Positions 18,563 to 44,340 are shown, numbered from the stretch's first letter. The stretch is 64,000 nt of DNA from an uncultured Steroidobacteraceae bacterium (GCA_964494895.1 CAZBTV010000006.1:12043-76042); one strand, 5' to 3'. Notes: generated by a model from the sequence alone, not told the origin. Program-made: numbers and translations.

Positions 18563-19603
18563 TCAACGCTGGGGCGTGTACACGCTGCTCAGAGCGGCAC
18601 CCGCTGCCTGGGCGTGAGCCGGCTCCTCGGTCTCGCCCGAAACAGGCTGTGCCGTCGGTCCCTGCGTCGGCTGCCTCACCAAGGGTCCCGTGTCCGGTAG
18701 CGCTGTCAGATTGAATAGCTCGGGGCGCAGAGTCCGGTAGCGCTCAACTCCAACGAACAAAGTCGACGGATCGCGCTCCAGACGCCGTGCAACCTCGGCG
18801 AGGGTCGCAACGCCGCGCTCAGTGGCATACCACGTGATCAGAGCGCGGGCGAGCGAAAGGCGCCGCTGCCGGGAACGTGACAACACCTCACTGCGTTCCA
18901 CGCCAAGCGTACAGGAGACCGTATCAATTACCTGGTCGAGCGAATAGCTGCTCCGGTGTACTCGCATATGGCGCGGGATGTCGGCCATGAACTGCCGATC
19001 CCCGAGCACACGCGGATCCTCGTCGCAGCCGCGCTCGAAATGAGTGCCCTCGTCCGGGGCGGGCGCCTCGAACATCAATCGACGGTAGGCATAGCGCGCC
19101 TGTTCCGGCCGTTGGGCCAACATGCGCAGAGCAACTCCCGTCGTCAGCCAGGGAATCTGGGTCACGCCCATGTAGGCACGCTGACTGCTAAGGGCATAGT
19201 CGTTAGGATCCCGAACAGCGCCCGAACGCACGGGAATGATATGCAAATAGCGGATGAGCTTCAGCAGATAGGCATCAGGATCGATCAGCAACGAGTGGTA
19301 GCGCTGTTGAAACAGGTGTCCGCCGTTGCCCTGTCGGCGGTGAACCCGCCGGGCATACTGACTGCTGAGGCGTTGCATGAGCCTTCCGACAGGCATGTCG
19401 GAGACCTGCAGCGCGAGATGGATCGCATCTACTTCCCAGCAGAACGCATGCACACGCGCACGGCAGCGAGCGAGCATGGTGGCAAGAAGCCGCTCGAAGA
19501 TCGCATAGTCGGCAGCATCGGTGAAAATCGGTTGACGGGCGTTACTGCGTTGTACGACGTAGTAAACACCACCGGGTACGTGAAGTCTGGATCGACGTGA
19601 CAT
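18563..19603 (-). CDS. Y1 (IS200/IS605, RayT-like) transposase homologue with degenerate HUH motif fused to a DnaA-domain-IV-like HTH
   Basis: N-terminus: RLHVPGGVYYVVQRSNARQPIF...VHAFCWEVDAIHLALQV...GHLFQQRYHSLLIDPDAYLLKLIRYLHIIPV, the Y1_Tnp layout. C-terminus: VLSRSRQRRLSLARALITWYATERGVATLAEVARRLERDPSTLFVGVERY resembles the DnaA C-terminal DNA-binding domain. I found no terminal inverted repeats or REP clusters. Confidence 0.7.
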   Translation of the reverse strand: MSRRSRLHVPGGVYYVVQRSNARQPIFTDAADYAIFERLLATMLARCRARVHAFCWEVDAIHLALQVSDMPVGRLMQRLSSQYARRVHRRQGNGGHLFQQRYHSLLIDPDAYLLKLIRYLHIIPVRSGAVRDPNDYALSSQRAYMGVTQIPWLTTGVALRMLAQRPEQARYAYRRLMFEAPAPDEGTHFERGCDEDPRVLGDRQFMADIPRHMRVHRSSYSLDQVIDTVSCTLGVERSEVLSRSRQRRLSLARALITWYATERGVATLAEVARRLERDPSTLFVGVERYRTLRPELFNLTALPDTGPLVRQPTQGPTAQPVSGETEEPAHAQAAGAALSSVYTPQR

Positions 19604-20188: not shown

Positions 20189-22165
20189 TCACGTCGTCGT
20201 CTCTGGAGCAAGCTCGAGAAGCAGACTACCCTCGGGAACGCGATCACCGCATCCAAAATGGATCACTTTTATAACTCCGTCATTCGGAGCCCGAATGCTG
20301 TGCTCCATTTTCATGGCCTCAATCACCATCAGGACATCGCCTGCCTTGACCGATTGTCCCATGTGCGCATTGATCGCAGTGACAACGCCAGGAAGCGGCG
20401 TTGTAAGCCCCCCCTGCGCAGCTGTGGCCGCAAACTCCCTCCGACGGGGATCATCCAGCGCGATCTCAAAATGTTCCCCTTCCATCCACAGATGAATCCT
20501 CGACTCCTCGCTCAGATAGCGCGCTTCCAAACGCACGCTCTCGATTTGGACCGCGATGTTCCCGTTATAAATCGCTAAATTCGCGATGTTGAGAGGGGTT
20601 TGTGCGTCAACAGAGATGGCAACCGGTCGGCCGCGTTCGAAAACCAATTCGGTGTAGTGCTGGTGCCCGCGCCAGGTCAGGTTGTATGCGACCCGGGCGG
20701 GTAGATTCGGAGTGAACCCGTCGAAAACTTCCCATGGCGTCCTCGGCCGCGGGGATGCGGTTGTAACGTGCAGTGTGAGGCATGCAAGAGCAACGACCGC
20801 CGGCTCCAGATCATCAGGACCGGTGAAGTCTCCAGAGCATTCATGCAAGAACGCGATGCTGTGGCGTACTGCCAGGAAGCGCGAGTCCAGTAGAACACGG
20901 CTCAGCCACTTGTCGTTCGTATGCACGCCGACGCAGCGGATCTGCTCGAGCGCTGCCGCAAGCCGTGCGGCTGCGCGTTGGCGCTCGGGTGCCCAGGCGA
21001 TGACTTTGCCTAGAAGGGAGTCATAGGTTGCCGGAACGCTGTCACCCGTCGCGAAGCCGGAGTCGACCCGGATGAAATCCTCAGCAGGCCACTGTAGGAG
21101 CCGTAAGTCGCCCGCGCTCGGCAGAAAATCACGATCCGGGTCCTCCGCGCAAACACGAGCCTCGATTGCATGTCCCTGGAACTGGATCTCTTCTTGCGCA
21201 AGAGGTAGCGGCTCACCGCTCGCCACTCGCAACTGCCATTCAACCAGGTCGAGACCGGTGATGGCTTCGGTCACGGTGTGCTCCACCTGCAGCCGAGTGT
21301 TCATTTCCATGAAGAAGAATTCGGCGCCGTCGAACAAAAATTCGACCGTGCCCGCACCGACATAACCGATCTCTCGCGCCACCAGTACGGCCGCGGCTCG
21401 CAGACGATTGCGAACGTCTGCAGGAATGGCCGGCGCTGGGGCTTCCTCGATCAACTTCTGATGGCGGCGCTGGATAGAGCAGTCGCGATCACCCAGATGC
21501 ACAAAATGATCATGGGTATCGGCGAACACCTGTACCTCGACGTGACGCGGGGCAGGAAGATACCTCTCGAGCAAGAGCGCCCCGTTCCCGAATGCGCTCT
21601 CGGCAACCCGACGCGCTCCCGCGAGGGCCGCGGGAATTTCGCCTTTTTCTCTGATGATGCGCATGCCCTTCCCGCCTCCGCCGGCGGCAGGCTTGATGAT
21701 CAGCGGCAACCCCAACTCGAGCGCGGCTCTTTCCAGGGACTCCAGGTCCTGCCTCGAGCCCTCATATCCAGGGAGCACGGGAACGCCAGCGGCGCGCATC
21801 CTCGCCTTGGCCTCGATTTTCGAGCCCATCGCCTCGATGGCCGAAGCGGGGGGGCCGACAAACACCAGTCCCGCCTGCGTGCAAGCCGTCGCAAAGTGGG
21901 CGTTCTCCGAAAGGAAGCCGTAGCCTGGATGAATCGCTTGCGCGCCCGTAGAGCGTGCGGCCTCCAGAAGCCGCTCGATGTTGAGATAGCTCTCGCGAGC
22001 AGCGGCCGGCCCGATTCGAACAGCTTCGTCGGCCTCGCGCACATGCTGCGCGCTCGCATCCGCGTCTGAAAAAACGGCGATCGTGCGCACGCCGAGGCGG
22101 CGCGCTGTACGAAAGATGCGGCAGGCAATCTCGCCGCGGTTCGCGACCAGGAGGCTTTTTATCAT
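20189..22165 (-). CDS. mccA: 3-methylcrotonyl-CoA carboxylase alpha subunit (biotin carboxylase + BCCP)
   Basis: LLVANRGEIACRIFRTARRLG, ATP-grasp motifs, and the C-terminal biotinylation motif VIEAMKMEH. Specificity is inferred from the neighbours. Confidence 0.85.
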   Translation of the reverse strand: MIKSLLVANRGEIACRIFRTARRLGVRTIAVFSDADASAQHVREADEAVRIGPAAARESYLNIERLLEAARSTGAQAIHPGYGFLSENAHFATACTQAGLVFVGPPASAIEAMGSKIEAKARMRAAGVPVLPGYEGSRQDLESLERAALELGLPLIIKPAAGGGGKGMRIIREKGEIPAALAGARRVAESAFGNGALLLERYLPAPRHVEVQVFADTHDHFVHLGDRDCSIQRRHQKLIEEAPAPAIPADVRNRLRAAAVLVAREIGYVGAGTVEFLFDGAEFFFMEMNTRLQVEHTVTEAITGLDLVEWQLRVASGEPLPLAQEEIQFQGHAIEARVCAEDPDRDFLPSAGDLRLLQWPAEDFIRVDSGFATGDSVPATYDSLLGKVIAWAPERQRAAARLAAALEQIRCVGVHTNDKWLSRVLLDSRFLAVRHSIAFLHECSGDFTGPDDLEPAVVALACLTLHVTTASPRPRTPWEVFDGFTPNLPARVAYNLTWRGHQHYTELVFERGRPVAISVDAQTPLNIANLAIYNGNIAVQIESVRLEARYLSEESRIHLWMEGEHFEIALDDPRRREFAATAAQGGLTTPLPGVVTAINAHMGQSVKAGDVLMVIEAMKMEHSIRAPNDGVIKVIHFGCGDRVPEGSLLLELAPETTT

Positions 22166-22219
22166 GCGGATTGGGCGGGCGAGTCGATGGTTTGTATGCG
22201 TGCTGCCATTGGCGACGTT

Positions 22220-23818
22220 CTACATCCTGAACAGCCCGAAACGGGTATCACGCTCCGGTGAGTTTCGGACCGCGGCCAGACAGAGCGCGAGAACTCGACG
22301 GGTGTCGACCGGATCGATGACGCCATCGTCCCACAGCCGCGCGGACGCATAGTAGGGGTGTCCCTGGCGCTCATACTGTTCGCGAATCGGCTGTTTGAAT
22401 GCCTCCTCTTCCGCTTCAGGCCACGAGGCACCTTTCATCTGGTCGCGCTTCACTGTTGCAAGCACACTTGCGGCCTGCTCCCCTCCCATGACCGAGATAC
22501 GCGAGTTTGGCCACTGGAAGAGAAACCGCGGTGAATAAGCTCGCCCGCACATGGCGTAGTTTCCGGCGCCATAGCTACCGCCGATGATGACCGTCAGCTT
22601 CGGTACGCTCGCGCATGCGACAGCCGTCACGAGCTTCGCGCCGTCCTTCGCTATTCCGCCCGCCTCCGCTCGCTTACCCACCATGAAGCCAGTGATGTTC
22701 TGTAGAAACAGTAGCGGGATCTGCTCACGGGTGCAGAGCTCAACAAAGTGCGCGCCCTTCAAGGCGCTCTCGGAAAATAGAATGCCGTTGTTCGCAAGAA
22801 TGCCGACCGGATAGCCGCCGATATGGGCGAAACCGCACACCAGGGTCGTTCCGTACAACTCCTTGAACTCGTCCAGCTCAGAGTCGTCGGTTAGCCGCGC
22901 AATCACTTCACGCACGTCGTACGGTCTGCGGAGGTTCGCGGGTACCACCCCGTAGAGCTCCGCCGGATCAAAGCGCGGTTCGGCCGGAGCACGCGGCGGC
23001 GTAGTGTCCGGTGCGGCCTTCAGACGACCGACAATCCGGCGCGCAATCGAGAGCGCATGCGTGTCGTTTTCGGCGTAGTGATCGCAAACACCCGACTCCC
23101 TACAGTGGACATCCGCGCCCCCGAGCGACTCCGCATCGACATCCTCTCCGGTAGCCGCTTTCACCAGCGGAGGCCCCCCCAGGAAAACACGCCCCTGCTT
23201 GCGAACAATGACGTTCTCGTCCGACATCGCGGGAACGTAAGCGCCACCTGCCGTACAAGAGCCGTGAACCACCGCAATTTGCGCGATGCCTTCGGCGGAC
23301 AGCGTCGCCTGGTTATAGAAGATTCGCCCGAAATGCTCACGGTCGGGAAACACCTCGTCCTGAGCCGGAAGAAACGCGCCACCACTCTCGACGAGATAGA
23401 CACAAGGCAGGCGGTTTTCCCGTGCGATCTCCTGCGCCCTGAGGTGTTTCTTGACAGTGAGGGGGTAGTAAGTGCCGCCTTTCACGGTCGGATCATTCGC
23501 AACGATCACGCACTCGCGGCCGCTTACCCTCCCTACTCCCGTCACGATTCCTGCCGCGGCGATGTCTCCACCGTACATGCCGTGAGCGGCAAGTTGCGAC
23601 AGCTCCAGAAAAGGACTGCCCGTATCGAGGAGCACCCGGATACGCTCGCGAACGAGGAGCTTTCCCGCAGCTCTGTGCTTCTCGACGGCCGCCTTGGAGC
23701 CCCCCTGAGCGACGCGCTCGACTTCATGGCGCAAATCAGCCGCCAGAGCCTGCATGGCACGGTCGTTCTCGCGAAATTCCTGGGAGTGGACGTCCACCCG
23801 GGTCGACAGTCGGGGCAT
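22220..23818 (-). CDS. mccB: 3-methylcrotonyl-CoA carboxylase beta subunit (carboxyltransferase)
   Basis: Carboxyltransferase fold: [26 protein letters not shown]...[27 protein letters not shown] prefer ATG 23818 ([15 protein letters not shown]) over the TTG at 23851 used by the track. Confidence 0.88.
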
Positions 23819-23840
23819 CGCGCTTGTCAGGGTTGCCGGT

Positions 23841-23851
23841 TTGTCGGACAA
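23841..23851. promoter_or_regulatory. candidate GntR-type operator palindrome TTGTC-G-GACAA
   Basis: A perfect 5-1-5 palindrome in the mccB/ivd divergent intergenic region. It fits the generic GntR-family GT-Nx-AC core. A related half-site, CTTGTCAGG, lies at 23823-23831. Confidence 0.3.
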
Positions 23852-23884
23852 TCATACGATCCTACTGAACGCAAAGGCAAGCTC

Positions 23885-25060
23885 ATGGACGCCACCGAAT
23901 GCAGTGACTTTGACTTCGGGCTGGGTCCCGAGCTCGACGAGGTCCGCACCCAGGTGCGGCGCTTCGCGCGTGACCAGATAGCGCCGCGAGCGGCCGAGAT
24001 CGATCGCACCAATGAGTTTCCCCGCGATCTGTGGCCGGCCTTGGGTGAGCAGGGACTGCTTGGAATCACCGTACCGGAGCGCTGGGGAGGCGCGAACCTC
24101 GGTTATCTCGCACACGTGCTCGTCATGGAGGAAATCTCTCGCGCATCGGGTGCCGTTGGCCTGTCTTACGGCGCGCACTCGAACCTGTGCGTGAACCAAC
24201 TCCGGCTCAATGGCACGGACGCGCAGCGCGACCGCTATCTCCCGAAGCTCGTCAGCGGCGAGCACCTCGGCGCCTTGGCGATGTCCGAACCCGGAGCCGG
24301 CTCCGACGTCGTCTCAATGCAACTGCGCGCCGACAAGCGCGGGGATAGATACGTACTCAACGGTCGAAAGATGTGGATCACCAACGGACCGGATGCGGAT
24401 GTCTTCGTCGTGTATGCGAAGACGGAGCCTTCGGCCGGCGCGCGTGGAATCACTGCGTTCATTGTCGAACGCGGCACTGAAGGATTCTCCACCGCCCAGA
24501 AGCTGGATAAATTCGGCATGCGCGGCTCGGGCACCTGTGAGTTGGTGTTCGAGGACTGTCCCGTGGCCGCAGCGAACATCCTGGGCTCGGAGAATGGGGG
24601 CGCCCGGGTATTGATGAGCGGCCTCGATTATGAGCGCGTGGTGTTGGCGGGCGGCCCTCTGGGCCTCATGGCCGCCGCTCTCGATCTGGTCCTGCCATAC
24701 ATTCACGAGCGCAAGCAATTCGGCCAACCCATCGGGACATTCGAGCTCATGCAGGCGAAAATCGCGGACATGTATGGAGCACTGAATGCCAGCCGCGCAT
24801 ACGTTTACTCGGTTGCGCGGGCTTGCGATGCGGGTACTGTAAGACGCCGCGATGCCGCGAGCTGTATCCTGTTCGCCGCGGAGCGGGCAACACAGGTCGC
24901 GCTCGAATCCATCCAGGCGCTGGGCGGCAATGGCTACATCAACGACTTTCCGGCGGGACGATTGTTGCGCGATTCGAAGCTCTACGAGATTGGCGCGGGC
25001 ACGCAGGAGATTCGCCGCATGTTGATCGGCCGGGAGCTGTTTGAGACAGTGGCGGCATGA
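23885..25060 (+). CDS. ivd: isovaleryl-CoA dehydrogenase
   Basis: ATG 23885. [59 protein letters not shown]...[10 protein letters not shown]...[19 protein letters not shown]. 391 aa. Confidence 0.9.
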
Positions 25061-25833
25061 GCACGGACCCCGAGGGCACGCGGACAGAGGCTGTTCGCTT
25101 CGAACAGATTTTGATCGAGCCCGCCTACCGGAAGGTGGCAGCGGTGATCGAAGAGCGTATCGTCAGCCGAACCCTGCGCGAAGGTGAGCGCCTGCCCGCC
25201 GAATCCGAGCTCGCGCGTCAATTCGGAGTGAATCGCTCGACAATACGCGAGGCGCTTCGCGAGCTCGAAAGTGGAGGACTGGTCACGCGGCGACCCGGCT
25301 CGAAGTTGATGTCGGTCAGCCGCCCACAACATGACGCCATCGCCGAAGGCGTTAGCCGTGCCCTCGTCATGCACGACGTCACATTCATGGAAGTCTGGTC
25401 TGCGCTGACGATCCTGGAGCCACCCATCGCGGAAGCTGCCGCACGCGCGCGCACTGCTGATGACCTGGCAGGTGTGGTGGACGCCACTGAGAAATTCGCA
25501 GCTCTAAACGCCGACACCGGGCGCGCGGTTCACCATGCCGCGGAATTTTTCCGGCGTGTCGGCAAGGCAACCCATAATCAGGTGCTCGCGCTCGCGCAGG
25601 AGCCTCTCCTGCAGCTTCTCGAGCCCTCGCTGCGGGTGATGATCGATAAGGTCCCGCAGGCCCGATCACGTATTTCCGCCGCGCAACAGCACATCGTCGA
25701 AGCGCTGGAGGAGCGGGATGCCGAAGGAGCACGGACCTGGATGACAAAACATATCCGTGACTTCCGCAAAGGGTACGAAATCGCGGAGATTGACCTGCAG
25801 TTGCGCATCCCAGGAGTCAGCGCCGCCGGATGA
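25057..25833 (+). CDS. GntR-family (FadR/FCD subfamily) transcriptional regulator
   Basis: ATGA overlap with ivd. wHTH motif [34 protein letters not shown], followed by a helical FCD-like C-terminal domain. Confidence 0.85.
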
Positions 25834-26240: not shown

Positions 26241-26999
26241 TCAGGGTCCGACCTGTACCTGCTGCATCAGCCGCGTGGTTTGCTCCGTGAGCAAGGCGGC
26301 GAAGAATGATTCCAGTTGCACATAGTCCTGTGCCGGGATTGCTTTCGTATCTGGCGGGTCGGCGAAGGTCGTCCACTCCAGCGCATCGTTCCCTCCCCAG
26401 TCACGGGCTCGCAACTGCGGGCCTTCCGGTGAGGGGACCACCACCACCATTTCGGTCATACTGAATAGGCTCGGCTTGCCATCGGGAGCGGCAGCCTCGC
26501 CGGTCGCAAAGCCCCAGCCTCGGAGATAGTCGGGCAGCCCCTTGCGGCGTGCGGAGCCGCCATGAGTGGAGTTGTTGAGGCCGGGAGCGAGCGCAATGAT
26601 GGCCTGGACGCTCTCCTGCGAGGCGAGGTGCTCGAACGGCGCTGCGCATTCCTTCGGCAAGCCCTTTGAGAAGTTGCCATTGAGGAAGCACGACTCCCGG
26701 GCGCGATCGAGCTCCTCGGTCATCTGCAGCGGCACGAGCACCAGGCCCATCCGTGCCGCATGATCCTTCAACGCATCGATGAGCAGGCTGCTCACAGGCC
26801 AGTCGACCGTCTCGGTTTTGAGGAAACCGTCCTTGAGAGATTTGCCCGAATGGTAGTGTGTGACTTCCGGATACAACACCGTCACGACTCCAACGCGGGA
26901 GCCCCTGGCGAGCACCAACGGTGAAGCCGCCGTCACCGTCGCAACCGACGTGCTCAACACCCACAGGCAAGCTATCCAGCCTGCCCCGACTCTAACCAT
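26241..26999 (-). CDS. secreted hypothetical protein (252 aa)
   Basis: ATG 26999. Signal-like N-terminus GWIACLWVLSTSVATVTAAS. No family motif recognised. Coding-like composition. Confidence 0.55.
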   Translation of the reverse strand: MVRVGAGWIACLWVLSTSVATVTAASPLVLARGSRVGVVTVLYPEVTHYHSGKSLKDGFLKTETVDWPVSSLLIDALKDHAARMGLVLVPLQMTEELDRARESCFLNGNFSKGLPKECAAPFEHLASQESVQAIIALAPGLNNSTHGGSARRKGLPDYLRGWGFATGEAAAPDGKPSLFSMTEMVVVVPSPEGPQLRARDWGGNDALEWTTFADPPDTKAIPAQDYVQLESFFAALLTEQTTRLMQQVQVGP

Positions 27000-27497: not shown

Positions 27498-30029
27498 ATG
27501 TCGCGTCTAACCAAGCACATGCCGGCAGTGGCTGGCTATCGCGAGCGGCTGGCCACATTGCAAGGCGCTTGGGACAGCCTTGCGCTGTTGTCGCATCTCA
27601 GCGAGGACGGAACCAACCTCAGCGGCACGCGGCAGGCCTTCGAATCGCTCGCGGGCGACCTCGTGACACACCTCGCGGAGGAGACCCAAAAGAAGGCGCT
27701 GCTCGCGGCACGCGCCAGGGCACAGGTGGCGATCGACATCCTGGTGCGAAACCTTTTCGAGCGTACGGCCGACATCGGCTTTCTTGCAGCGGACGGACGC
27801 ATCCGCCGCTTTGCCCGGCGAATTCCGGACCTCCGACGCAGCGCCAGCGGCACCGGCGCGACCGATTCAGCGGTCAAGGCCCTCGCGGCGGCAACGCATG
27901 CTCTCGAGCGCCATCTCGCCGAGTACGTCGCCAAGTATTCTGTCTACCACAACGTGATCCTGCTCTCTCCCGAGGGTGAAGTTCTCGCGCAGCTCGAGAA
28001 CGGCTCCGCTCCGGCCTCTACGCGCGACCCGCTCGTCGGCAGCACCTTGGCGAGTGATAAGGCTTACCTCGAGACGTATCGGCAAACGGATCTCGTCCCC
28101 GAATCGCGCCGCGCCCTCATCTATTCGCACCGGGTTGCTTCCGAGCGCGAGACGCTCGGAGTTCTGTGCCTGTGCTTTCGTCTGGAGGACGAATGCGCGG
28201 GTATTTTCGCCAAGTTGCGCTCGGCCGCCGATTGGACCGTGCTCTCATTGTTGGATGCCAACGACGAAGTCATTGCCACCAGCGATCCTTACCAGGTCCC
28301 CGTCGGGGCGCGTGTCACGCCAGGCAACGGTGACACGGGCGACATCATCCGTTTCGCGGGCCGGGAGTTCCTGGCGGTCACGCGCAAGCCCCAACCGTAT
28401 CAGGGTTACACCGGCCCGCAATGGCGCGGGCATGTCATGATTCCGCTGGAGCGCGCCTTCGAGGCGGACGGCCGCTCCGGCAATCCCGGCTGCACCTCCG
28501 AGGTGTTGGCAGATCTGCGCTCGAGCGCTGCGACATTCTCCTCGGCGCTGCGCGACATCCCCCGCCAGGCGGATGCCGTCCAGCGCGATCTCAATCGCTC
28601 CGTCTGGAATGGCAGCGTGCGGCTGTCCCTCAGCGACAGCGGCAACAGCACCTTCGCGAAAGCCCTGTTGCGCGAGATCAGCAATATGGGGCGCAAGACC
28701 AAGGAGGTGTTCGAGCACTCCATCGAAGAGCTGCACGAGACGGTTGTCTCCTCTGTCTTGCACGATAGTCAGTTCATGGCCTCGCTGGCGAGCGAGCTGC
28801 TGGCGCGCAACCTGTACGAGCGCGCAAACGACTGCCGCTGGTGGGCGCTCGACACGACATTGATCGGCCGGCTCACCAATGTGGAAGGCTGCGACGACGA
28901 TGCGGTGACCCGCGTACTACGGCACATCAACAGCTTGTACACCGTTTACCATTGTATAGTGCTGTTGGATTCGGACCGACGTATCGTGGCGACCTCCCGC
29001 CCGGAATACGAGCACCTGACAGGCACACAGATGGATGAGCCTTGGGCGGCACAGACTCTCGAGGTGGTCGGCACCCAAGGCTATAGCGTGTCAGGATTTC
29101 AGCCCAGCGCACTTTACGACAACCGACCCACGCTGATCTTCGGTGGCGCCGTCAGAGGCGCGAAGGGACGGGTCGTCGGTGCCGTCGCCGTGGTGTTCGA
29201 TACAGCCCCACAGTTGGCGGCGATGTTGCACGATTGTCTGCCCCGCGACGAGAGCGGACAGCCACTCGCGGGATCTGTCGCTCTGTTTCTGGATCGCGAT
29301 CAACGAGTCATGGCAAGCAGCGCCACCGTCGATGCCGGCGCTCTCGGGCTGCAATGGACTCGAGACGCCGCCCGGCAAGGTGAAGCTCGCGTAGTCCGTG
29401 TTGGAGAAAGCTACCACGCGATCGGAGTAAAGCCTGACAGCGGTTACCGCGAGTATCCGGGACTTGGCGGATACGCGATGGTGATGATCCCGATCGGCGG
29501 CGTGGCGCAGCGGCGCGGGGGCGCACGCGGCGCCGTGCCACAGCGGGCGGCAACTCGCCAGAGCGGCAAACACGACTTTCGTGAGTTTGCCACTTTCGCT
29601 GCAGGGGATGGCTGGTACGCGTTGCCCACCGCCAATGTGATCGAAGCCGTCGATGCGCGTACGCTGCAGACACTACCGACCGCCGAGCGCTGGTGCGCCG
29701 GCTATCTGATGTTCGCGGGCGAGCCTATCGCGGTTGCGGATCTCAGCCAGGTGCTCGGCGAAAGTCAGTTGGAGACCCCACGTATCGTGGTCATCATCCG
29801 CGCCCAAGGACGAGCCAAACCCTTCGGCCTCCGGGTGGAGCTGTTAGGAGATGTCTCGGAAGTGCCGACGGACCGCCTGTTGCCGATCGATGGCTCGAGC
29901 GAGCAGCTGGCCACATTGGCTATCGAGCCTGCCGATCCCAACGCGCCGCTGGTCATGATTCTGAGTCCTGACCGCCTGGCAACGCTCCTCTACGGAGATC
30001 TGGCCGGCCCGTCGGCCGTAGCTGCCTGA
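27498..30029 (+). CDS. soluble tandem-sensor-module protein with C-terminal CheW-like domain
   Basis: ATG 27498 (MSRLTKH...). CheW-like C-terminus at about 29568-29990: FATFAAGDGWYALPTANVIEAVD...GEPIAVADLSQVLG...PRIVVIIRAQGRAKPFGLRVELLGDVSEVPTDRLLPI. The N-terminal part is an internal duplication: LVRNLFERTADIGFLAADG...YSVYHNVILLSPEGEVLAQ matches LLARNLYERANDCRWWALD...YTVYHCIVLLDSDRRIVATS. No TM segment and no HAMP/MCP signalling domain seen. Confidence 0.8.
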   Translation: MSRLTKHMPAVAGYRERLATLQGAWDSLALLSHLSEDGTNLSGTRQAFESLAGDLVTHLAEETQKKALLAARARAQVAIDILVRNLFERTADIGFLAADGRIRRFARRIPDLRRSASGTGATDSAVKALAAATHALERHLAEYVAKYSVYHNVILLSPEGEVLAQLENGSAPASTRDPLVGSTLASDKAYLETYRQTDLVPESRRALIYSHRVASERETLGVLCLCFRLEDECAGIFAKLRSAADWTVLSLLDANDEVIATSDPYQVPVGARVTPGNGDTGDIIRFAGREFLAVTRKPQPYQGYTGPQWRGHVMIPLERAFEADGRSGNPGCTSEVLADLRSSAATFSSALRDIPRQADAVQRDLNRSVWNGSVRLSLSDSGNSTFAKALLREISNMGRKTKEVFEHSIEELHETVVSSVLHDSQFMASLASELLARNLYERANDCRWWALDTTLIGRLTNVEGCDDDAVTRVLRHINSLYTVYHCIVLLDSDRRIVATSRPEYEHLTGTQMDEPWAAQTLEVVGTQGYSVSGFQPSALYDNRPTLIFGGAVRGAKGRVVGAVAVVFDTAPQLAAMLHDCLPRDESGQPLAGSVALFLDRDQRVMASSATVDAGALGLQWTRDAARQGEARVVRVGESYHAIGVKPDSGYREYPGLGGYAMVMIPIGGVAQRRGGARGAVPQRAATRQSGKHDFREFATFAAGDGWYALPTANVIEAVDARTLQTLPTAERWCAGYLMFAGEPIAVADLSQVLGESQLETPRIVVIIRAQGRAKPFGLRVELLGDVSEVPTDRLLPIDGSSEQLATLAIEPADPNAPLVMILSPDRLATLLYGDLAGPSAVAA

Positions 30030-30112
30030 CCCAGTGACCTGCCTGCGGCGGTGGCGATCTGTCGCTTTGCGCAAACATTGCGCGCACAATCCGGGTACGC
30101 CAGCATTCGGGC

Positions 30113-33100
30113 ATGCAATATGTCGCCAGACTTTTGGCCATGAACTCGACGCGGAACGTTGTTGCAACGCACACTCAAGAGCCGGAGGCGCCCCACGAGC
30201 CCGGCCTGACGTTGCCCGGATCTGAGTCCAGCCGCGGCGAAATGGCTCGGCGCTTTCGCGAATTCGATTGGTCCTCCACGCCGCTCGGCCCGGTCGAGTT
30301 CTGGCCCGAGAGCTGGCGCAATGCCGTGCAGATCATTCTCGACTCGAGCTTCCCTACCGCCCTGGGCTTGGGCGACGAGCTCATCTATTTCTACAACGAT
30401 GCGTTCATTCCATTGGCTGGTCCGTCGCGTCACCCGGCAGCGCTGGGCCTGCCGGTAAAGGTCGCCTGGAAAGAGATCTGGGATCAGATTCTCCTGCCTC
30501 GATTCACGCACACCCTGACAACCGGGGCTCCAACAGGTGAGGCGGATCTGTTGATGCCGCTCGTGCGCAGCGGCTATCTCGAGGAAACCTACATCACGTT
30601 CTCGTTTGCCGCGCTCCGCGACGACCGGAATCGTCCCAGCGGCATTTTCTGTACAGCCATCGAGAATACCCGGCGTATCATCGCCGAGCGGCAAATGAAT
30701 TGCTTGCGGGCGCTCGCCGCGGGCAGCTCGTTCGCCGACTCGCCTGAGGGTGTCTGCCAATCGGCAGTGGCGGCTCTCGAAGGCAACCCCCGCGACCTGC
30801 CGTTCGCGGCACTGTATCTGGTCGAGGCGGACGGAAAGCGCGCGCATCTCGCCGGGACGGCTGGACTGTTGTCCCTTCCCAGCCTCTTTCCACAAACTCT
30901 GGAGATTACTGAAGGGAGCTCGAACGCGGTCGCGCGCGTGGCTCTCACTCGCCTTCCACAGCTCATCGAGGACGTACAGCCGTTTGTAGACGGCCTGGTT
31001 CGCACACCAGAGGTAACTCCCCAACGGGCGCTGGCGCTACCCGTATCGAATCCAGCAGCAGAGAATCTCGCGGCGGTCCTGGTCGCGGGTGTAAACCCGA
31101 TGAGGCCCGTGGATGAGTCGCGCACCTTTTTCGATCTCGTCGCCAATCACCTGGAAACCGCGATTTACAGCGCACGCGCGAAACAACATGTTCGCCAGCG
31201 TGCGCAGGCGCTCGCGGAGCTCGACCGCGCAAAAACGGTCTTCTTCAGCAATATCAGTCATGAGCTCCGGACGCCGCTGACCTTGTTGCTGGCGCCACTT
31301 GACGACCTGTTATCACGGACAACTCTGGAATCAGCGGACCGCGACCTGGTGGAAATCGCCCGTCGCGGCGGCGGACGGCTGTTGAAGCTGGTGAATTCGC
31401 TGTTGGAGTTCTCACGTATCGAGGCCGGGCGCATCGAGGCGAGCTTCGAGGCTACCGACCTTGCAAGTCTGACGAGCGATCTTGCCAGCGTGTTTCGCTC
31501 GGCGTTCCAGCGTGCCGGGGTTGGATTGGCCATTGACTGCCCGAAGCTGCCTGAGGATGTGTTCGTCGATCGCGATATGTGGGAGAAGATCGTTCTCAAC
31601 CTCGTGTCGAACGCGTTCAAGTTCACGCTCGAAGGCCGGGTGCAGGTTTCTCAGCACGCTCTGGGTGAGAGCATCGAGCTGAGGGTAAACGACACCGGCT
31701 GTGGTGTGGCGGCCGAGGATCTTCCCCGTTTGTTCGAGCGATTCTTTCGTGGGCGCGCATCCCAAGCGCGCACCCACGAAGGTTCCGGAATCGGTCTCTC
31801 TCTCGTGCAGGAGCTTGTGAAGCTGCACGGCGGCAGCGTCGAGGCGCAAAGTCAGGTTGGTATAGGCACCACCATCACGGTACGCATCCCGCGCGGCTCC
31901 GCTCACCTGCCACCTGAGCGCTTGGGAGTGATGCGGACCTTGGAGGTTGCCCGGATAGGCGCACTGCCCTTCCTCGAAGAAGCACTGGGTTGGTTGCCGG
32001 AGGGAGCGCGCGCGGAGCTACGCGCGACGGACCAAAGCACCACCCTGGCTGCAGACCAGGCGAGTACTCCGGATCAGACCGCGCGCATTCTCATCGCCGA
32101 TGACAACGCCGACATGCGACACTATATGTCGCGACTGCTCGGCGATCGGTGGCAGGTCGAGACGGAGCCCGACGGAGGAGCCGCGCTAGAGCACATTCGC
32201 CGCAACCCACCTGATCTCGTCATCGCAGACGTGATGATGCCCGTGATGGACGGGTTTGCACTGTTGCGCGCGATCCGAGCCGATGACGCTATCTCCAAGC
32301 TTCCGGTAATGTTACTTTCGGCCCGTGCTGGCGAAGAGGCCTCGTCCGAGGGACTGCGCGCCGGAGCGGACGACTATGTCACCAAGCCGTTCTTTGCTCG
32401 GGAACTGGTAGCCCGGGTAGAGTCCAGACTCGCCCAGGCCCGGTTGCGTGCTGCGGAACATCGCGCGCGGACCGCTGCAGAAGAAGCAAACCGAGCCCGG
32501 GACGTATTCTTCACAATGCTGTCGCATGAGCTGCGTACGCCGCTCATGGCAGTGCTCGCCTGGACCGCCCTGCTCAAAGGGAACAAACTGGATGCTGACG
32601 AAGCACTGCGCGCGCTCGATCTCATCGAGCGTAACGCGCGTGTTCAACGCCGGCTGGTGGATGACCTCCTCGACATCTCGCGCATCGTAACAGGCCGCCT
32701 GCGCATCGAACCGCGTACCATCACTTCTCTGGCACCGATCATCAGCACAGTGGTCGACTCCTTCCGCCCCGCAGCGCTGGCGAAAAATCTCGCCGTGGAG
32801 ACAGCCTTTGAGGCAGACGCAGGCGCAGTACACGGGGACCCCGAACGCTTGCAACAGGTAGTCTGGAATCTGCTCTCCAACGCGATCCGCTACACATCGC
32901 CGGGAGGACAGATCCAACTTTTCTACGGCCGCCGCGACCATCATGTCGAATTGCTGGTGCGGGACTCAGGCCAGGGAATCGCCCCGGAGGCGCTGCCGCA
33001 CCTGTTCGAGCGCTACTGGCAAGGAGCCAACACCCAACGTCGCTCCCACGGCCAGGGACTGGGGCTCGGGCTGGCGATCGCTCATCGCATCATCACGCTG

Positions 33101-33724
33101 CACGGCGGTCAAATCACCGCAGCCAGCGACGGTGAGGGACGCGGGTCAACCTTCACGGTAAGCCTGCCGGTGCTTCTGGCCGACCCGGAATCGAATCCTG
33201 CTGACCCTGACTGCGGCCATCCGGCAACCTCGAGCGCGCGCATGCAGGACGCTGCGGCCTCAGAGTTGGAAACCGCCGCGAGTGCCGCGTACCAGCATAA
33301 CCTACACCCAATCACGGGCGAGAGTAGCCATAGCTCTGAGAATCTGCGCGTCCTGCTGGTGGAAGATCATGAAGGAGTTGCGAAAGCCTGCCGCCGGCTA
33401 TTGATGGGCCACGGCCACTTCGTCGTCTGTGTTCCGGGCTTCGCCGCCGCAATCGAGGCCACCGAGCGCGCCAAGTTCGATCTGCTCATCTGTGATCTGA
33501 CGCTTCCCGATGGCAGCGGCCTCGAGTTGCCGTCCCGGCTGCGCACGCGGTTCACCCGCTTAGGCCGCCACGGCCAGCTTCCCGCCATTGCCATCAGCGG
33601 CAGCGTGTATCGTGAGGACATCATACGCAGCCTCGAAAATGGCTTCGCGCTGCACCTGGCGAAGCCTTTCGACGAGGCAGACCTCGTCTCCGCGGTGAAT
33701 AAAGTGATCGCAACGCTGGCGTGA
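30113..33724 (+). CDS. hybrid sensor histidine kinase with two kinase cores: PAS-GAF-HisKA-HATPase-REC-HisKA-HATPase-REC
   Basis: PAS-like segment FREFDWSSTPLGPVEFWPESW. H-box 1 FFSNISHELRTPL (His codon 31259-31261), with N/G boxes IVLNLVSNAFKFT, DTGCGV, GSGIGLSLV. REC1 DLVIADVMMPVMDG (Asp 32228-32230). H-box 2 FFTMLSHELRTPL (His 32525-32527), with VVWNLLSNAIRYT, DSGQGI, GQGLGLGLAIA. REC2 DLLICDLTLPDGSG (Asp 33494-33496). The start could be 30113 or 30140. Confidence 0.88.
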   Translation: MQYVARLLAMNSTRNVVATHTQEPEAPHEPGLTLPGSESSRGEMARRFREFDWSSTPLGPVEFWPESWRNAVQIILDSSFPTALGLGDELIYFYNDAFIPLAGPSRHPAALGLPVKVAWKEIWDQILLPRFTHTLTTGAPTGEADLLMPLVRSGYLEETYITFSFAALRDDRNRPSGIFCTAIENTRRIIAERQMNCLRALAAGSSFADSPEGVCQSAVAALEGNPRDLPFAALYLVEADGKRAHLAGTAGLLSLPSLFPQTLEITEGSSNAVARVALTRLPQLIEDVQPFVDGLVRTPEVTPQRALALPVSNPAAENLAAVLVAGVNPMRPVDESRTFFDLVANHLETAIYSARAKQHVRQRAQALAELDRAKTVFFSNISHELRTPLTLLLAPLDDLLSRTTLESADRDLVEIARRGGGRLLKLVNSLLEFSRIEAGRIEASFEATDLASLTSDLASVFRSAFQRAGVGLAIDCPKLPEDVFVDRDMWEKIVLNLVSNAFKFTLEGRVQVSQHALGESIELRVNDTGCGVAAEDLPRLFERFFRGRASQARTHEGSGIGLSLVQELVKLHGGSVEAQSQVGIGTTITVRIPRGSAHLPPERLGVMRTLEVARIGALPFLEEALGWLPEGARAELRATDQSTTLAADQASTPDQTARILIADDNADMRHYMSRLLGDRWQVETEPDGGAALEHIRRNPPDLVIADVMMPVMDGFALLRAIRADDAISKLPVMLLSARAGEEASSEGLRAGADDYVTKPFFARELVARVESRLAQARLRAAEHRARTAAEEANRARDVFFTMLSHELRTPLMAVLAWTALLKGNKLDADEALRALDLIERNARVQRRLVDDLLDISRIVTGRLRIEPRTITSLAPIISTVVDSFRPAALAKNLAVETAFEADAGAVHGDPERLQQVVWNLLSNAIRYTSPGGQIQLFYGRRDHHVELLVRDSGQGIAPEALPHLFERYWQGANTQRRSHGQGLGLGLAIAHRIITLHGGQITAASDGEGRGSTFTVSLPVLLADPESNPADPDCGHPATSSARMQDAAASELETAASAAYQHNLHPITGESSHSSENLRVLLVEDHEGVAKACRRLLMGHGHFVVCVPGFAAAIEATERAKFDLLICDLTLPDGSGLELPSRLRTRFTRLGRHGQLPAIAISGSVYREDIIRSLENGFALHLAKPFDEADLVSAVNKVIATLA

Positions 33725-33811
33725 TGGCGCGCGCTGCGCGGGCTAGCAGGTAGACAAACAGCAATACACCCGGAAGGAGCCGCCCCTCCCGGTTGGCAGG
33801 CTCCAGCTCAT

Positions 33812-34456
33812 TCAATTGCGGGCGTTGACGTTGCTCCGCTCGCCTTTGAGTCCGGCAAGCTGTGCGATCTCCACGAGTTGGATGAGCGAGCTGGCATGCA
33901 GCTTCTGCATGACCCGCGCGCGATGTACCTTGATCGTTTTCTCAACCGTCCCGAGCTCCGCGGCAATCTGCTTGTTGAGTCGTCCAGCGACCACCTTCTC
34001 CAGAACCTGGCGCTCGCGAGGGGTCAGCGTCGCGATACGTCCTGCGATGGTATTGCGTGTTTCCCACTCCGCGCGACCGGCGGCGTCGATCGCCAGCGCC
34101 TCCGCGAGCGCGGCCAGCAGCTCCTCGCGATCCACTGGCTTGGTGAGAAAGTTCACCGCCCCGGCTTTCATGGCGCGCACGGTATTGTGGATCTCCCGAT
34201 TGGCCGTGAGAAAAATGACCGGCCGATGGCATCCGGAAGCAGCCAGGCAGCGCTGCAGCTGCAGGCCGTCCAGATCGGGCATGGACAGATCCAGGAGCAC
34301 GCAACCGGGCGGCTCCGATTCATGCCCGATGAGAAACTCGTGCGCCGAGTTGAATTCCCGCACGTCATAACCCGCGCCCCGCACCAGGCGTCCAATGGCT
34401 CTGCAAACATCGGGATCGTCGTCCACGATGAATACTGTTTCCTCCTGTACGCTCAT
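33812..34456 (-). CDS. FixJ/LuxR-family response regulator (REC + LuxR-type HTH)
   Basis: VFIVDDDPDVCRAIGRLV...CVLLDLSMPDLDGLQL...LTKPV. C-terminal LTPRERQVLEKVVAGRLNKQIAAELGTVEKTIKVHRARVMQKL. Confidence 0.9.
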   Translation of the reverse strand: MSVQEETVFIVDDDPDVCRAIGRLVRGAGYDVREFNSAHEFLIGHESEPPGCVLLDLSMPDLDGLQLQRCLAASGCHRPVIFLTANREIHNTVRAMKAGAVNFLTKPVDREELLAALAEALAIDAAGRAEWETRNTIAGRIATLTPRERQVLEKVVAGRLNKQIAAELGTVEKTIKVHRARVMQKLHASSLIQLVEIAQLAGLKGERSNVNARN

Positions 34457-34773
34457 TGTCGCAGCCCCTCCTCCAGCGGCTCACCAGAACCAACTTGAGC
34501 TTCCTTCAGCGCTTCGCCTATGCGCTTCACGATCCCGGCGGCGCGCTTATCGTCCGCGATGATGTCCTCGAGTATGTCGTGCAGCTCGGCGCGATCCATC
34601 ACGGTGCTGGACATGCTGCGTTGCGCTGCCTGCGCGTTGCTCAAAATCGCAGTCAATGGTTGGTTCAGCTCGTGCAGGAGAGCCGCGACATCCGGTCCGG
34701 GTGCATTTCGTGAGTTGCTCAAAGGACGCACGCTCGCATCGTCGTCGTCAATAGGCACTAATCTAACCCTCAC
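34453..34773 (-). CDS. DHp-only (H-box) mini-protein, FixL-type dimerisation/phosphoacceptor helices without PAS or ATPase domain
   Basis: 106 aa, GTG start. ALLHELNQPLTAILSNAQAAQRSM....LHDILEDIIADDKRAAGIVKRIGEAL aligns to my memory of the FixL DHp (ALAHELNQPLAAISNY...RAGQIIRRLRDF). The ORF stops right after helix 2, and its stop overlaps the fixJ-like ATG (ATGA). It could be a functional phosphotransfer protein or a decayed kinase remnant. Confidence 0.6.
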   Translation of the reverse strand: MRVRLVPIDDDDASVRPLSNSRNAPGPDVAALLHELNQPLTAILSNAQAAQRSMSSTVMDRAELHDILEDIIADDKRAAGIVKRIGEALKEAQVGSGEPLEEGLRQ

Positions 34774-34855
34774 GCGGCCACGAAGCTATTGTGCAACGCG
34801 CAATGCATCGCAACACCCCAACGGCCATTCAGCTCCCACGAGGCTACCGCAAAAC

Positions 34856-42298: not shown

Positions 42299-43126
42299 TC
42301 AGGAGCGCCAGCCCGGAGGTGTTTCAGCCGGATCGCGCCCGAGTGGACTCAGCTTCAGGCGCTCGAGATACTGCCTGACGGACTCGCGGCAGCCTTCACT
42401 GCTGGTGACGGTGGTCCCGCCGGCAAGCACGAAGATGAAATCTCCCCGAGGCGTGCGGCTGATTTCCCGGACGTGGTTCATGTTCACGAGACAGGACCGG
42501 CTGATGCGTAGCAACGGTTGAGACTGTAGTGATTTCTCCGCCTGCTGCAAAGTGCTGCGTGCATGGAAGCTCTCACGCCCGACACCCAGTCTCACGTAAT
42601 TGCGCTCCGACTCGACCAGCTCCACCTGACCTACGTCCAGCATGTGCATGCGGCTGCCCGCCTCCGCAAGGATCCGCGGACGCAAGTCCGACAGTGCGCG
42701 GGCGCTGCGCTCAATTTGCGCTAATACGGAGCTGAGGGTTACGGACCGCTCGGCACCGCTTTCGGCCTCACGTCTGCGCCTTACGCGCGCGATCGTCTTG
42801 CGAAAGCGGTCATCATCGAAAGGCTTCAGGAGATAATCCACCGCGCTCACCTCGAATGCTTCGAGCGCGTAGTGGTGATAGGCCGTGACGAAGACGATCT
42901 GCGGCAGAGTGTCGGGATCCAGTGAGCGTGCCAGCACGACGCCATTCTGAGAATCAATCTGGATGTCGAGAAACAGCAGGTGCGGCGGTCGAGCACGAAT
43001 AGCCTCGAGTGCCGAGCGCGCATCGCCATACTCTCCAACGACACGCAAATCCGGTTCTCGCGCGCAACACTCCCGCAGCGTACGGCGCGCGGCAGGCTCG
43101 TCATCGACAATCATGACATCCATCAT
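42299..43126 (-). CDS. LytR/AlgR-family response regulator (REC + LytTR)
   Basis: VMIVDDEPAARRTL...HLLFLDIQI...DYLLKPF. The C-terminal LytTR region contains FHARSTLQQAEKSL....LLRISRSCLVNMNHV. Confidence 0.88.
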   Translation of the reverse strand: MMDVMIVDDEPAARRTLRECCAREPDLRVVGEYGDARSALEAIRARPPHLLFLDIQIDSQNGVVLARSLDPDTLPQIVFVTAYHHYALEAFEVSAVDYLLKPFDDDRFRKTIARVRRRREAESGAERSVTLSSVLAQIERSARALSDLRPRILAEAGSRMHMLDVGQVELVESERNYVRLGVGRESFHARSTLQQAEKSLQSQPLLRISRSCLVNMNHVREISRTPRGDFIFVLAGGTTVTSSEGCRESVRQYLERLKLSPLGRDPAETPPGWRS

Positions 43127-43149: not shown

Positions 43150-44340
43150 TCAGATGCCCGCCCTGGCAGTCATCTCGCTCTCCGCCGGCCGCATCACGGG
43201 CGAACTTTCGCCCGACGAGGCTTCGACGGGTACGACAGGTCCGTCTCGCAGCAACGGCAATCGTACCTCCGCGATCCATACGTTGTCATAGCCGGGCATC
43301 GCGCTGAAGGAGGCGCGGTCGCCGAACTGAATCGCCAGGCGCTCACGCACGTTGCGCAAGCCGATCCCCACCCGTCCTGCGAGTTTACCCGCAGCAACCG
43401 TGTTTACCACCCTGAGGGACAACATCTCGTCGTGGACGACGGCCTCGACCCGCACCATCACCGGACCGTCGTGTCCGGAAAGGCCGTGCACGACCGCGTT
43501 CTCCACCAAAGGCTGCAGGATCAGGCTCGGGACCCAGGCGGCAACGATCCCGTTCGGCTCAGGCACGCGAATGCTCAAGCGATCGGCGAAGCGGCGTTGT
43601 TGCAGGCCCAGGTACGATCGCACGAATTGCAACTCCTCCTCCAGGCGTGAGAAATCACGCTCACCGGCGGTCAGAAGGCGGCGCAGGAGGTCACCCAGTT
43701 GCACGACCATCGACTGGGCCGCCGCGGGATCCCAGGAAATCTGGCCGCGTATCGTGTGCAGGAGATTGAACAGGGTGTGCGGCGACAACTGCATTCTCAG
43801 CGCGGCCAGATGCGCGGCACTCAGCTCCCGTTCCAGAGCGCTCGAGCGTAACTGCGCATCGCGCAGGCGCTGGTAGAAGGCGAAGCCCATGACGAGCGTG
43901 AGCGCGAAGCCGTAGGTCAGGAAAAATGTCGTGGCGCTCGCGAGCCACATCGGACCGTCCGACGGGTCCCACCAGTTCTCACCCTTCATCATGTGCTTCT
44001 GCAGTGTGGCGGCATCGCTGGAAAGGTACTCGCCGATCCCAAGCGCCGGCTTGCCCAACACCGCGAAGAAAAACGCCAGCGAGAGTTGCACCGGAAGCTT
44101 CCGCCATACCGAGTGCCAGCCGATACGCGACGACAGCCAGACGCAGCCCAGCAACACCGGATAGAGAAAGAGATGTTGGAGCAGGCGGGCGCACGCAGGG
44201 GCGAACACATGGAATTTGCCGGGCATGGTGTCCAGGCTCGCCTGCATGCTGTTCGCGTACAGCACGTTCGACAGCGCGACGTACACCCAGAATACCGTCA
44301 GGATCAGGAAATTCTGGCGCACGCCTGGACTGGCGAACAT
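43150..44340 (-). CDS. LytS/YehU-type sensor histidine kinase (His_kinase PF06580-like + HATPase)
   Basis: AHLAALRMQLSPHTLFNLLHTIRGQI, then VPSLILQPLVENAVVHG...GIGLRNVRERL. Several N-terminal TM helices. The start is uncertain: I chose ATG 44340 (MFASPGVRQNF). The track ORF extends to 44781 through an Arg-rich, low-complexity 147 aa. Confidence 0.75.
   Translation of the reverse strand: MFASPGVRQNFLILTVFWVYVALSNVLYANSMQASLDTMPGKFHVFAPACARLLQHLFLYPVLLGCVWLSSRIGWHSVWRKLPVQLSLAFFFAVLGKPALGIGEYLSSDAATLQKHMMKGENWWDPSDGPMWLASATTFFLTYGFALTLVMGFAFYQRLRDAQLRSSALERELSAAHLAALRMQLSPHTLFNLLHTIRGQISWDPAAAQSMVVQLGDLLRRLLTAGERDFSRLEEELQFVRSYLGLQQRRFADRLSIRVPEPNGIVAAWVPSLILQPLVENAVVHGLSGHDGPVMVRVEAVVHDEMLSLRVVNTVAAGKLAGRVGIGLRNVRERLAIQFGDRASFSAMPGYDNVWIAEVRLPLLRDGPVVPVEASSGESSPVMRPAESEMTARAGI

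Follow-up and report, generated by a model that had tools for sequence, protein, structure and literature searches.

We analyzed a 64,000-nucleotide (nt) stretch of DNA from an uncultured Steroidobacteraceae bacterium (GCA_964494895.1 CAZBTV010000006.1:12043-76042; GC content ~62%), hereafter the window, in which the locus at positions 27498-34773 encodes a sensor-like protein with a CheW domain (gene A), a dual-core hybrid histidine kinase (gene B), a FixJ-like response regulator (gene C), and a small protein that consists of a DHp (HisKA) hairpin alone (gene D). The original prediction had read these four genes as one non-canonical multistep phosphorelay, that is, with D in the position normally taken by a histidine phosphotransfer (HPt) domain. 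Re-reading of the open reading frames (ORFs), together with Pfam and NCBIfam searches, confirmed that the four genes lie at the coordinates, and have the domains, that had been claimed for them, and a search for transmembrane segments found zero in all four proteins. The region was present in four soil-metagenome DNA runs, all from one study, and the run listing contained no RNA data; related contigs carry Steroidobacteraceae labels, and the clade is represented by soil metagenomes and metagenome-assembled genomes (MAGs) only. The genes of the locus, and the gap between the two that converge, are as follows:

27498-30029, plus strand: gene A, a soluble protein of 843 amino acids (aa) in which two Cache/PDC-like modules are followed by a CheW domain at the C-terminus (Pfam, structural model, and Foldseek)
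30113-33724, plus strand: gene B, a soluble dual-core hybrid histidine kinase of 1203 aa (Pfam and NCBIfam)
33725-33811, no strand assigned: the 87-bp intergenic gap between the convergent stop codons of B and C, with no terminator by a simple scan
33812-34456, minus strand: gene C, a FixJ-like response regulator of 214 aa, with a receiver at residues 8-117 (Asp56) and a GerE/LuxR helix-turn-helix at residues 143-198
34453-34773, minus strand: gene D, a stand-alone DHp (HisKA) protein, with a maximal ORF of 106 aa (Pfam HisKA)
34492-34689, minus strand: the two-helix hairpin core of D, with the His34 codon at 34672-34674

By its domain content, D is a HisKA/DHp protein and not a histidine kinase. 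Its only Pfam match is HisKA (PF00512; residues 29-85; 31.5 bits versus a cut-off of 26.9), and both the CA domain and the sensor of a kinase are absent. That is, Pfam found no CA domain (HATPase_c) in D, and in all D-family loci the sequence beyond the DHp match is short (0-41 residues); further, no frameshifted CA remnant was found after D in any frame in the six loci checked, the sole CA matches being the two that belong to B. Because no CA domain follows D in any frame, D is incapable of autophosphorylation. The stretch N-terminal to the hairpin is poorly conserved and shorter than 30 residues, and the neighboring SDR gene ends 83 bp upstream. The protein is probably ~89-92 aa long since the orthologues begin near 'LSNS', which corresponds to a start at GTG 34731 or TTG 34722. 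An AlphaFold-type model of D is a two-helix hairpin (helices 29-55 and 61-94) with a predicted local distance difference test score (pLDDT) >90; Foldseek returned no significant match for this model, as hairpins match many unrelated proteins, and the DHp domain of HK853 appeared at ranks 2 and 5.

D is also not a fragment peculiar to this genome. A search of 5.8 billion proteins recovered 564 relatives at E <= 1e-3, and the best 120 of these 564 were nearly all 66-141 aa long and HisKA-only. In an alignment of 27 sequences, the core (ALLHELNQPLTAILSNAQAAQR...ELHDILEDIVADDKRAAGIIKRL) was highly conserved and both tails were variable, with His34, Gln38, Pro39, and Leu40 of the H box (HELNQPL) invariant in all 27. 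The ratio of nonsynonymous to synonymous substitution rates (dN/dS) of D was 0.22 at dS ~1.26 (67-codon core, 11 orthologous loci), compared to 0.12 for C, 0.09 for the adjacent SDR gene, and 0.06 for the FNR gene in the same analysis, and the reading frame was open and the core kept in 28 distinct variants. D is thus a member of a conserved HisKA-only family under purifying selection, and its reading as a dead remnant or pseudogene was rejected based on the dN/dS value and this conservation.

The relatives of D point to where such a protein came from. A profile search of 1.84 billion representatives returned about ten clusters of short proteins and, after them, only DHp domains within kinases of 250-1200 residues, and D-family patterns scanned against GTDB genomes likewise matched mostly full-length kinases. 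The closest untruncated relatives in GTDB share ~50-60% identity with D; most of these continue for ~150-170 residues (the CA domain) past the matched hairpin, and most full-length relatives have 200-1000 sensor residues N-terminal to the match. Most of their loci have, next downstream on the same strand and usually no more than ~60 bp away, a gene for a FixJ-like regulator whose identity to C is typically 45-55%, and the closest solved DHp structure to the D family is that of FixL (4gcz; profile vs. PDB, E 1e-6). Because the nearest untruncated relatives of D are FixL-type kinases encoded directly upstream of FixJ-like regulators, D-C is, by sequence, a former FixL/FixJ-type kinase-regulator operon in which the kinase was reduced to its hairpin, with the loss of both sensor and CA domain. 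The kinase-then-regulator order, the close spacing, and the shared strand of FixL/FixJ pairs are all retained in D-C, whereas the PAS or haem sensor and the CA domain are not, so that D is not a kinase. Given this descent from a kinase-regulator operon, D most likely still docks on the receiver of C.

Neither the GTDB scan, nor a metagenome scan, nor the profile search of the 1.84 billion representatives revealed a D-family member outside a single gene arrangement, SDR-D-C-B, and the other pattern matches that were checked, outside the short D members, were each the DHp domain of a longer kinase. One candidate for a second DHp without a CA domain (L033, 9440-10620) was rejected as a frameshifted full-length kinase from a long-read MAG, with its CA domain immediately downstream in another frame; at L066 (9284-10219), no CA match was found after the DHp domain. 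Separately, one locus from an uncultured bacterium (L021, 5300-11300) has a full-length GAF-GAF FixL-type kinase followed by a FixJ-like regulator and, immediately upstream of that kinase, genes for a KaiC-like ATPase and a GAF-kinase-receiver hybrid kinase. The first DHp helix of this FixL-type kinase is almost identical to that of D, and the locus represents a further instance of a hybrid kinase beside a FixL-type kinase-regulator pair.

The coupling of D to C is tight. Pfam identifies a receiver and a GerE domain in C, the top NCBIfam match is FixJ, and Asp56 is conserved. The stop codon of D overlaps the start codon of C as ATGA, the ribosome-binding (Shine-Dalgarno) sequence for C, GGAGGAGGGG, lies inside D, and C is directly downstream of D in 36/36 loci. 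These observations bear out the earlier claim that D is coupled to a FixJ/LuxR-type regulator lying convergent to the kinase across an 87-bp gap. The two genes may also have a promoter of their own, for which the candidate element is:

34788-34796, minus strand: TTGCACAAT, including the octamer TGCACAAT, from the SDR-D intergenic alignment; a candidate -10 element or regulator site

Alignment of the sequence between SDR and D from 15 loci, drawn from both deep branches, showed no variation in the octamer TGCACAAT. In the second branch TTGAGC precedes it at a distance of 17 nt, so that it looks like the -10 element (CACAAT) of a promoter dedicated to D-C, or else like a regulator site. A sigma-70 scan of the locus did not include the TGCACAAT element among its reports, and a promoter/terminator scan of 26.9-36 kb gave counts at or below the shuffled expectation, with both the B/C and the A/B gaps empty. 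A further conserved element occurs in the 5' leader of D in most orthologues (e.g., L001, L005, L008, L009, L011, L015, L096, and the group-2 loci): AAGGAA followed by a GGCGG-N5-9-CCGCC hairpin, ~25 nt before the start codon. This segment is deleted in the window.

The kinase encoded convergently to C has two complete catalytic units. Its domain order is an N-terminus with a weak GAF match, kinase core 1, a first receiver (REC1), kinase core 2, and a second, terminal receiver (REC2), with two HisKA, two HATPase_c, and two receiver domains by Pfam:

30740-31165, plus strand: weak GAF_2-like putative sensor of B, residues 210-351 (E 4.9e-5, 24 bits, below the gathering cut-off)
31232-31897, plus strand: kinase core 1 of B, ~residues 374-595, with His383 (FFSNISHELRTPLT) and HATPase_c (Pfam and NCBIfam)
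32087-32422, plus strand: REC1 of B, residues 659-770, with Asp706, between the kinase cores (Pfam)
32480-33172, plus strand: kinase core 2 of B, ~residues 790-1020, with His805 (FFTMLSHELRTPLM) and HATPase_c at 908-1020 (Pfam and NCBIfam)
33350-33700, plus strand: REC2 of B, residues ~1080-1196, with Asp1128 and an invariant PAIAISGSVY segment (Pfam); the proposed phosphodonor to D

Across 11 orthologues of B, conservation extends to both H boxes, both N/G1/F/G2 sets, and the Asp, Ser/Thr, and Lys residues of the two receivers, and Pfam reported no Hpt family in B or its orthologues. Hence, the view that the hybrid kinase terminates in a receiver, without an HPt domain, stands, and its catalytic motifs are intact. 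Residues 1-370 of B had no match among PDB sequences. About 47 residues separate Lys758 of REC1 from His805 of core 2, and the order of a receiver followed by DHp and CA domains is as in Rec-controlled kinases; further, the NCBIfam model for LvrA matches B, below its cut-off. In one MAG (L016, 11248-17475), A and B align only in part (45% and 81% coverage, respectively), which suggests frameshifts or assembly indels over real truncations.

To reach a terminal regulator, a kinase ending in a receiver would normally use an HPt protein, and none was found in the window. Pfam returned no Hpt (PF01627) match in A-D or in 19 further ORFs, the rest of the window being judged by eye to be of metabolic, transport, or efflux function, and a loose six-frame scan for HPt motifs gave two chance matches and no HPt candidate. 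The absence of an HPt domain from the window, as originally proposed, is therefore well supported by these three lines, short of an exhaustive hidden Markov model scan of every ORF. The accompanying claim that D is the only other element in the window competent for His phosphotransfer does not hold since the window contains a second, canonical two-component pair:

43150-44781, minus strand: LytS-type kinase (His_kinase, PF06580; Pfam)
42299-43126, minus strand: LytTR regulator (Pfam)

This LytS/LytTR pair keeps the same relative position in related loci.

The comparison of the 36 D-family loci (from soil metagenomes and Steroidobacteraceae MAGs), which was the means suggested for checking whether the four genes belong together, gave a mixed answer. 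B was convergent to C in 32/32 informative loci, B being counted as judgeable only where the contig runs at least 400 bp past C (32/36 loci, representing 25 distinct D variants), and, as noted above, C never parts from D; A, on the other hand, is absent from three loci. The co-occurrence of D, C, and B is perfect, and it is also confounded with vertical descent, as every D-family locus is one syntenic block that consists of hyp252, (A), B, C, D, SDR and, usually, FNR. In one locus (L175) the outer flanks differ, yet hyp252-A-B-C-D-SDR is intact. The hyp252 gene (26241-26999, minus strand) encodes a protein of 252 aa with an N-terminal hydrophobic signal-like segment and no Pfam match. It adjoins A in the complete loci checked, or B where A is missing, with a TonB_C gene in between at L009; it shows 40-61% identity across the clade and is as conserved a neighbor as the signalling genes.

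Taking together the domain content, the intact catalytic motifs, the ancestry of D, the purifying selection on it, and the unbroken D-C-B linkage, we favor the hypothesis that B, D, and C make up a functional module of three genes that forms a relay from B through D to C, to which we assign a probability of about 40%. The constituents expected of a relay at its two ends are present, namely, a hybrid kinase with intact His and receiver Asp residues (B), and a terminal regulator with an output domain (C). Under this hypothesis, a signal at the GAF-like N-terminus of B would control kinase core 1 (His383), which would phosphorylate REC1 (Asp706); phosphorylated REC1 would then switch on core 2 (His805), as in Rec-controlled kinases, and core 2 would phosphorylate REC2 (Asp1128). 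We infer that phosphorylated REC2 is the most plausible donor to His34 of D, which would act as a homodimeric four-helix bundle and pass the phosphoryl group to Asp56 of C, after which C would bind DNA. D would probably also dephosphorylate phosphorylated C when B is silent. Of the four-gene phosphorelay envisaged in the original prediction, the B, D, and C part is thus kept, in that the domains and the linkage of these genes fit the presumed transfers, and A appears to be dispensable to it (see below).

Kinase-derived His phosphotransferases that shuttle phosphate from receiver to receiver do exist, i.e., PhyT, Spo0B, and ChpT (PMC5898713), and provide the closest precedents for the role proposed for D. 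Like D, Spo0B of Bacillus and ChpT of Caulobacter descend from kinases and present their His on a helical hairpin; they form a dimeric four-helix bundle and shuttle phosphate from a receiver to the terminal regulator in place of an HPt protein, as is proposed for D. Unlike D, which stops immediately past its second helix and is of the FixL-type HisKA subgroup, both retain a CA-like alpha/beta domain at the C-terminus. PhyT (PhyP) of Sphingomonas melonis is, like D, a kinase-like protein encoded beside its terminal regulator; it carries phosphate from the SdrG receiver to PhyR, has a degenerate ATPase domain, was earlier taken for a phosphatase, and also sequesters the regulator (PMC5898713). 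PhyT is, however, membrane-anchored, with a periplasmic domain, and of the HWE/HisKA_2 group, as opposed to the soluble HisKA hairpin of ~90 residues in D. Canonical HPt proteins (PF01627; e.g., ArcB-C and Ypd1) occupy the same relay position as proposed for D and are unrelated to it in sequence: they are monomeric four-helix bundles with an HxxKG motif, whereas D has no Hpt match and would form the bundle as a dimer. In size and content, the nearest equivalent of D is the isolated DHp fragment of EnvZ ('domain A'), a stable dimer that is phosphorylated in trans, transfers its phosphoryl group to OmpR, and dephosphorylates phosphorylated OmpR. EnvZ domain A is, like D, a DHp alone, but it is an engineered fragment and its donor is the separated CA domain rather than a receiver.

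Two further comparisons concern D as a class of protein and the internal wiring of B. Proteins with 'HisKA, no HATPase' are cataloged as 'possible incomplete histidine kinases' (P2CS; Galperin et al. 2018, PMC5847659); they have been flagged as unstudied, and roles as phospho-acceptors, in phosphotransfer, or as phosphatases have been proposed for them. D shares with these proteins the conserved His and the lack of an ATPase domain, but the described examples, mainly archaeal, have N-terminal PAS, GAF, or receiver domains (PMC5847659), whereas D contains nothing beyond HisKA and is always encoded in an operon with a FixJ-like regulator. As for B, in the LvrA/LvrB system of Leptospira, where a hybrid kinase feeds a Rec-controlled kinase, phosphorylation of the LvrB receiver is reported to free the catalytic domains (PMC13269768), and the REC1-core 2 unit may, by analogy, be comparable to LvrB. 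B resembles a fusion of a sensor-kinase-receiver unit with a receiver-controlled kinase core. It differs from LvrA/LvrB in that both parts belong to one polypeptide and share a receiver, and in having a further receiver at the end; the partner named for LvrB is the anti-sigma factor LvrC (PMC13269768).

Several observations weigh against the B-to-D-to-C relay. First, the SDR gene is as constant a neighbor of D-C as B is, and all loci share one block; therefore, adjacency is unable to separate function from descent, and the same adjacency logic that ties B to D-C would also count the SDR gene as 'linked'. A D-C-B trio in a new genomic context, which would break this confounding, was not encountered among the D-family members found. 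Second, the residues expected to carry partner specificity give the proposed pairing no support. We compared the helix alpha-1 positions of REC2 and REC1 with those of C, against a background of ~300 receivers from all loci; REC2 vs. C (G,V,A,R,L vs. D,V,A,R,L) scored 16, with class medians of 15-17 under crude class labels, i.e., no better than unrelated receivers. In addition, positions His+7, His+11, and His+12 of D (T, S, and N) are unlike those of the second DHp domain of B (M, A, and W). Third, Spo0B, ChpT, and PhyT all retain a CA-like domain that D does not have, and D would therefore represent, at most, a minimal variant of this class; our literature search found no natural DHp-only protein shown to relay phosphate. 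Finally, HPt genes are often encoded far from their kinases, and an HPt protein for B may be encoded in this genome outside the 64 kb examined here.

Alternatively, D might be only a phosphatase or sequestering partner of C, with C being phosphorylated by another kinase or by acetyl phosphate and B using an HPt protein encoded elsewhere. We consider this rather unlikely, and it is the strongest of the alternatives. In HisKA domains, Glu at position His+1 and Gln at position His+4 are linked to phosphatase activity, and D keeps both (HELNQPL). The phospho-acceptor His itself is largely dispensable for that activity; its invariance in all 27 aligned members of the family is thus a mild argument for phosphotransfer. 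Phosphatase activity has been suggested for 'HisKA, no HATPase' proteins (Galperin et al., PMC5847659), PhyT was initially considered a phosphatase and in addition sequesters PhyR (PMC5898713), and synteny alone can account for the adjacency of B. However, this alternative leaves C without a cognate kinase nearby, even though its operon descends from a kinase-regulator pair, and leaves B without an output in the window. If D were only a phosphatase, it would be a natural counterpart of the engineered EnvZ domain A, none of which was found to have been studied in our literature search.

It is also possible that all four genes form the relay, that is, that A detects a ligand and, via its CheW domain, regulates B, upstream of the steps from B to REC, D, and C; the evidence on A renders this improbable. 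A has a CheW domain at residues 697-828 (Pfam, E 2.9e-14) and weak dCache_1-like stretches at residues 128-230 and ~421-568, and its AlphaFold model (mean pLDDT 74.7) has a module of a long helix and an alpha/beta fold twice, followed by a CheW fold. Foldseek matched this model to CheW structures (target template modelling score ~0.8) and to the dCache sensors DctB, Tlp3, PctA, and KinD. The gap between A and B, which share a strand, is 83 bp and contains no predicted terminator, so A may be co-transcribed with B in the window and could modulate it, and A is present in 13/16 loci where its presence could be judged, in both deep branches. On the other side, A is cleanly absent from L005, L011, and L099, where B directly adjoins hyp252 and B, C, and D are intact. 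These three loci fall on separate branches of a neighbor-joining tree of B, each with an A-containing sister, which indicates repeated loss of A while B, C, and D were retained.

Further, homologues of A with 60-63% identity are solitary in three unrelated contexts, with no kinase, CheA, or chemoreceptor gene close by: a ccm operon (L012/L013), rpmB/rpmG and fpg (L176), and thioredoxin and Imm1 genes (L177). CheW domains bind the P5 domain of CheA and the tips of chemoreceptors. B has no known CheW-binding domain (no CheA P5 and no MCP domain), and neither the window nor the Pfam-annotated related loci contain a gene for CheA or a chemoreceptor. A is therefore an optional, accessory neighbor and not an obligatory input, and the earlier assignment of the sensor-CheW fusion as the input to the kinase is not supported.

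Somewhat less probable still is a split kinase, in which a CA domain acting in trans, from B or from another kinase, loads the His of D, and D transfers to C without a receiver as intermediate. Neighboring B does have two intact CA domains, D retains a complete H box, and separated DHp and CA fragments of EnvZ complement each other in vitro. Nonetheless, an untethered CA domain needs a high local concentration or a docking surface, neither of which is evident; each CA domain of B is already paired with its own DHp domain with an intact His; and the HisKA subgroup of D (HELNQPL) differs from that of B (HELRTPL). We regard as highly improbable that D is a dominant-negative micro-protein that heterodimerizes with full-length FixL-type kinases encoded elsewhere in the genome and thereby modulates their activity towards C or related regulators. 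DHp domains are dimerization modules, and there are Steroidobacteraceae full-length kinases with DHp domains 50-55% identical to D (L076 and L091), but no such full-length partner was present in any of the 36 loci, and a pure dimerization blocker would need neither the invariant His nor the H box. Lastly, that D is a non-functional leftover of a deleted kinase gene is scarcely credible: D does derive from part of a larger ancestral protein, and there is uncertainty about its start codon, yet the dN/dS value across lineages, the open frame and conserved core of all 28 variants, and the placement of the Shine-Dalgarno sequence of C inside D, with the stop/start overlap, all argue against it.

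Returning to the relay from B through D to C, we tentatively advance, with slightly less confidence than we have in the relay itself, a broader proposition: that the D family represents the first natural dimeric histidine phosphotransferases made of a DHp hairpin alone, replacing an HPt protein between a receiver-gated, dual-core hybrid kinase and a FixJ-like regulator, and that they were born of the stripping of a kinase that left it dependent on a neighboring kinase. If true, the relay would contain the minimal natural form of a His phosphotransferase and would reveal a route from a two-component pair to a multistep relay, with a kinase cut down to its hairpin and fed by the receiver of another kinase. 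In that case, HisKA-only genes of the 'incomplete' kind, usually disregarded or labeled as kinases, could be functional components of pathways, and the relay would provide a very small soluble module for the design of synthetic phosphorelays.

A few features of the wider window are also worth recording. Rfam and tRNA scans of the window gave no matches. Positions 20189-25833 carry a set of genes resembling leucine or isovalerate catabolism, syntenic across most of the clade, with a biotin carboxylase subunit, a carboxyltransferase subunit, an acyl-CoA dehydrogenase, and a GntR/FCD regulator. Of these, the regulator alone was examined with Pfam, and the names of the other genes come from Pfam annotations of related loci. 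Farther upstream, an ORF of 346 aa (18563-19603, minus strand) looks by eye like a Y1-type (REP-associated or IS200-like) transposase, and a Y1_Tnp/Bac_DnaA_C gene is found in a related locus (L014, 881-1846), beyond the carboxylase and acyl-CoA dehydrogenase genes relative to the kinase cluster.

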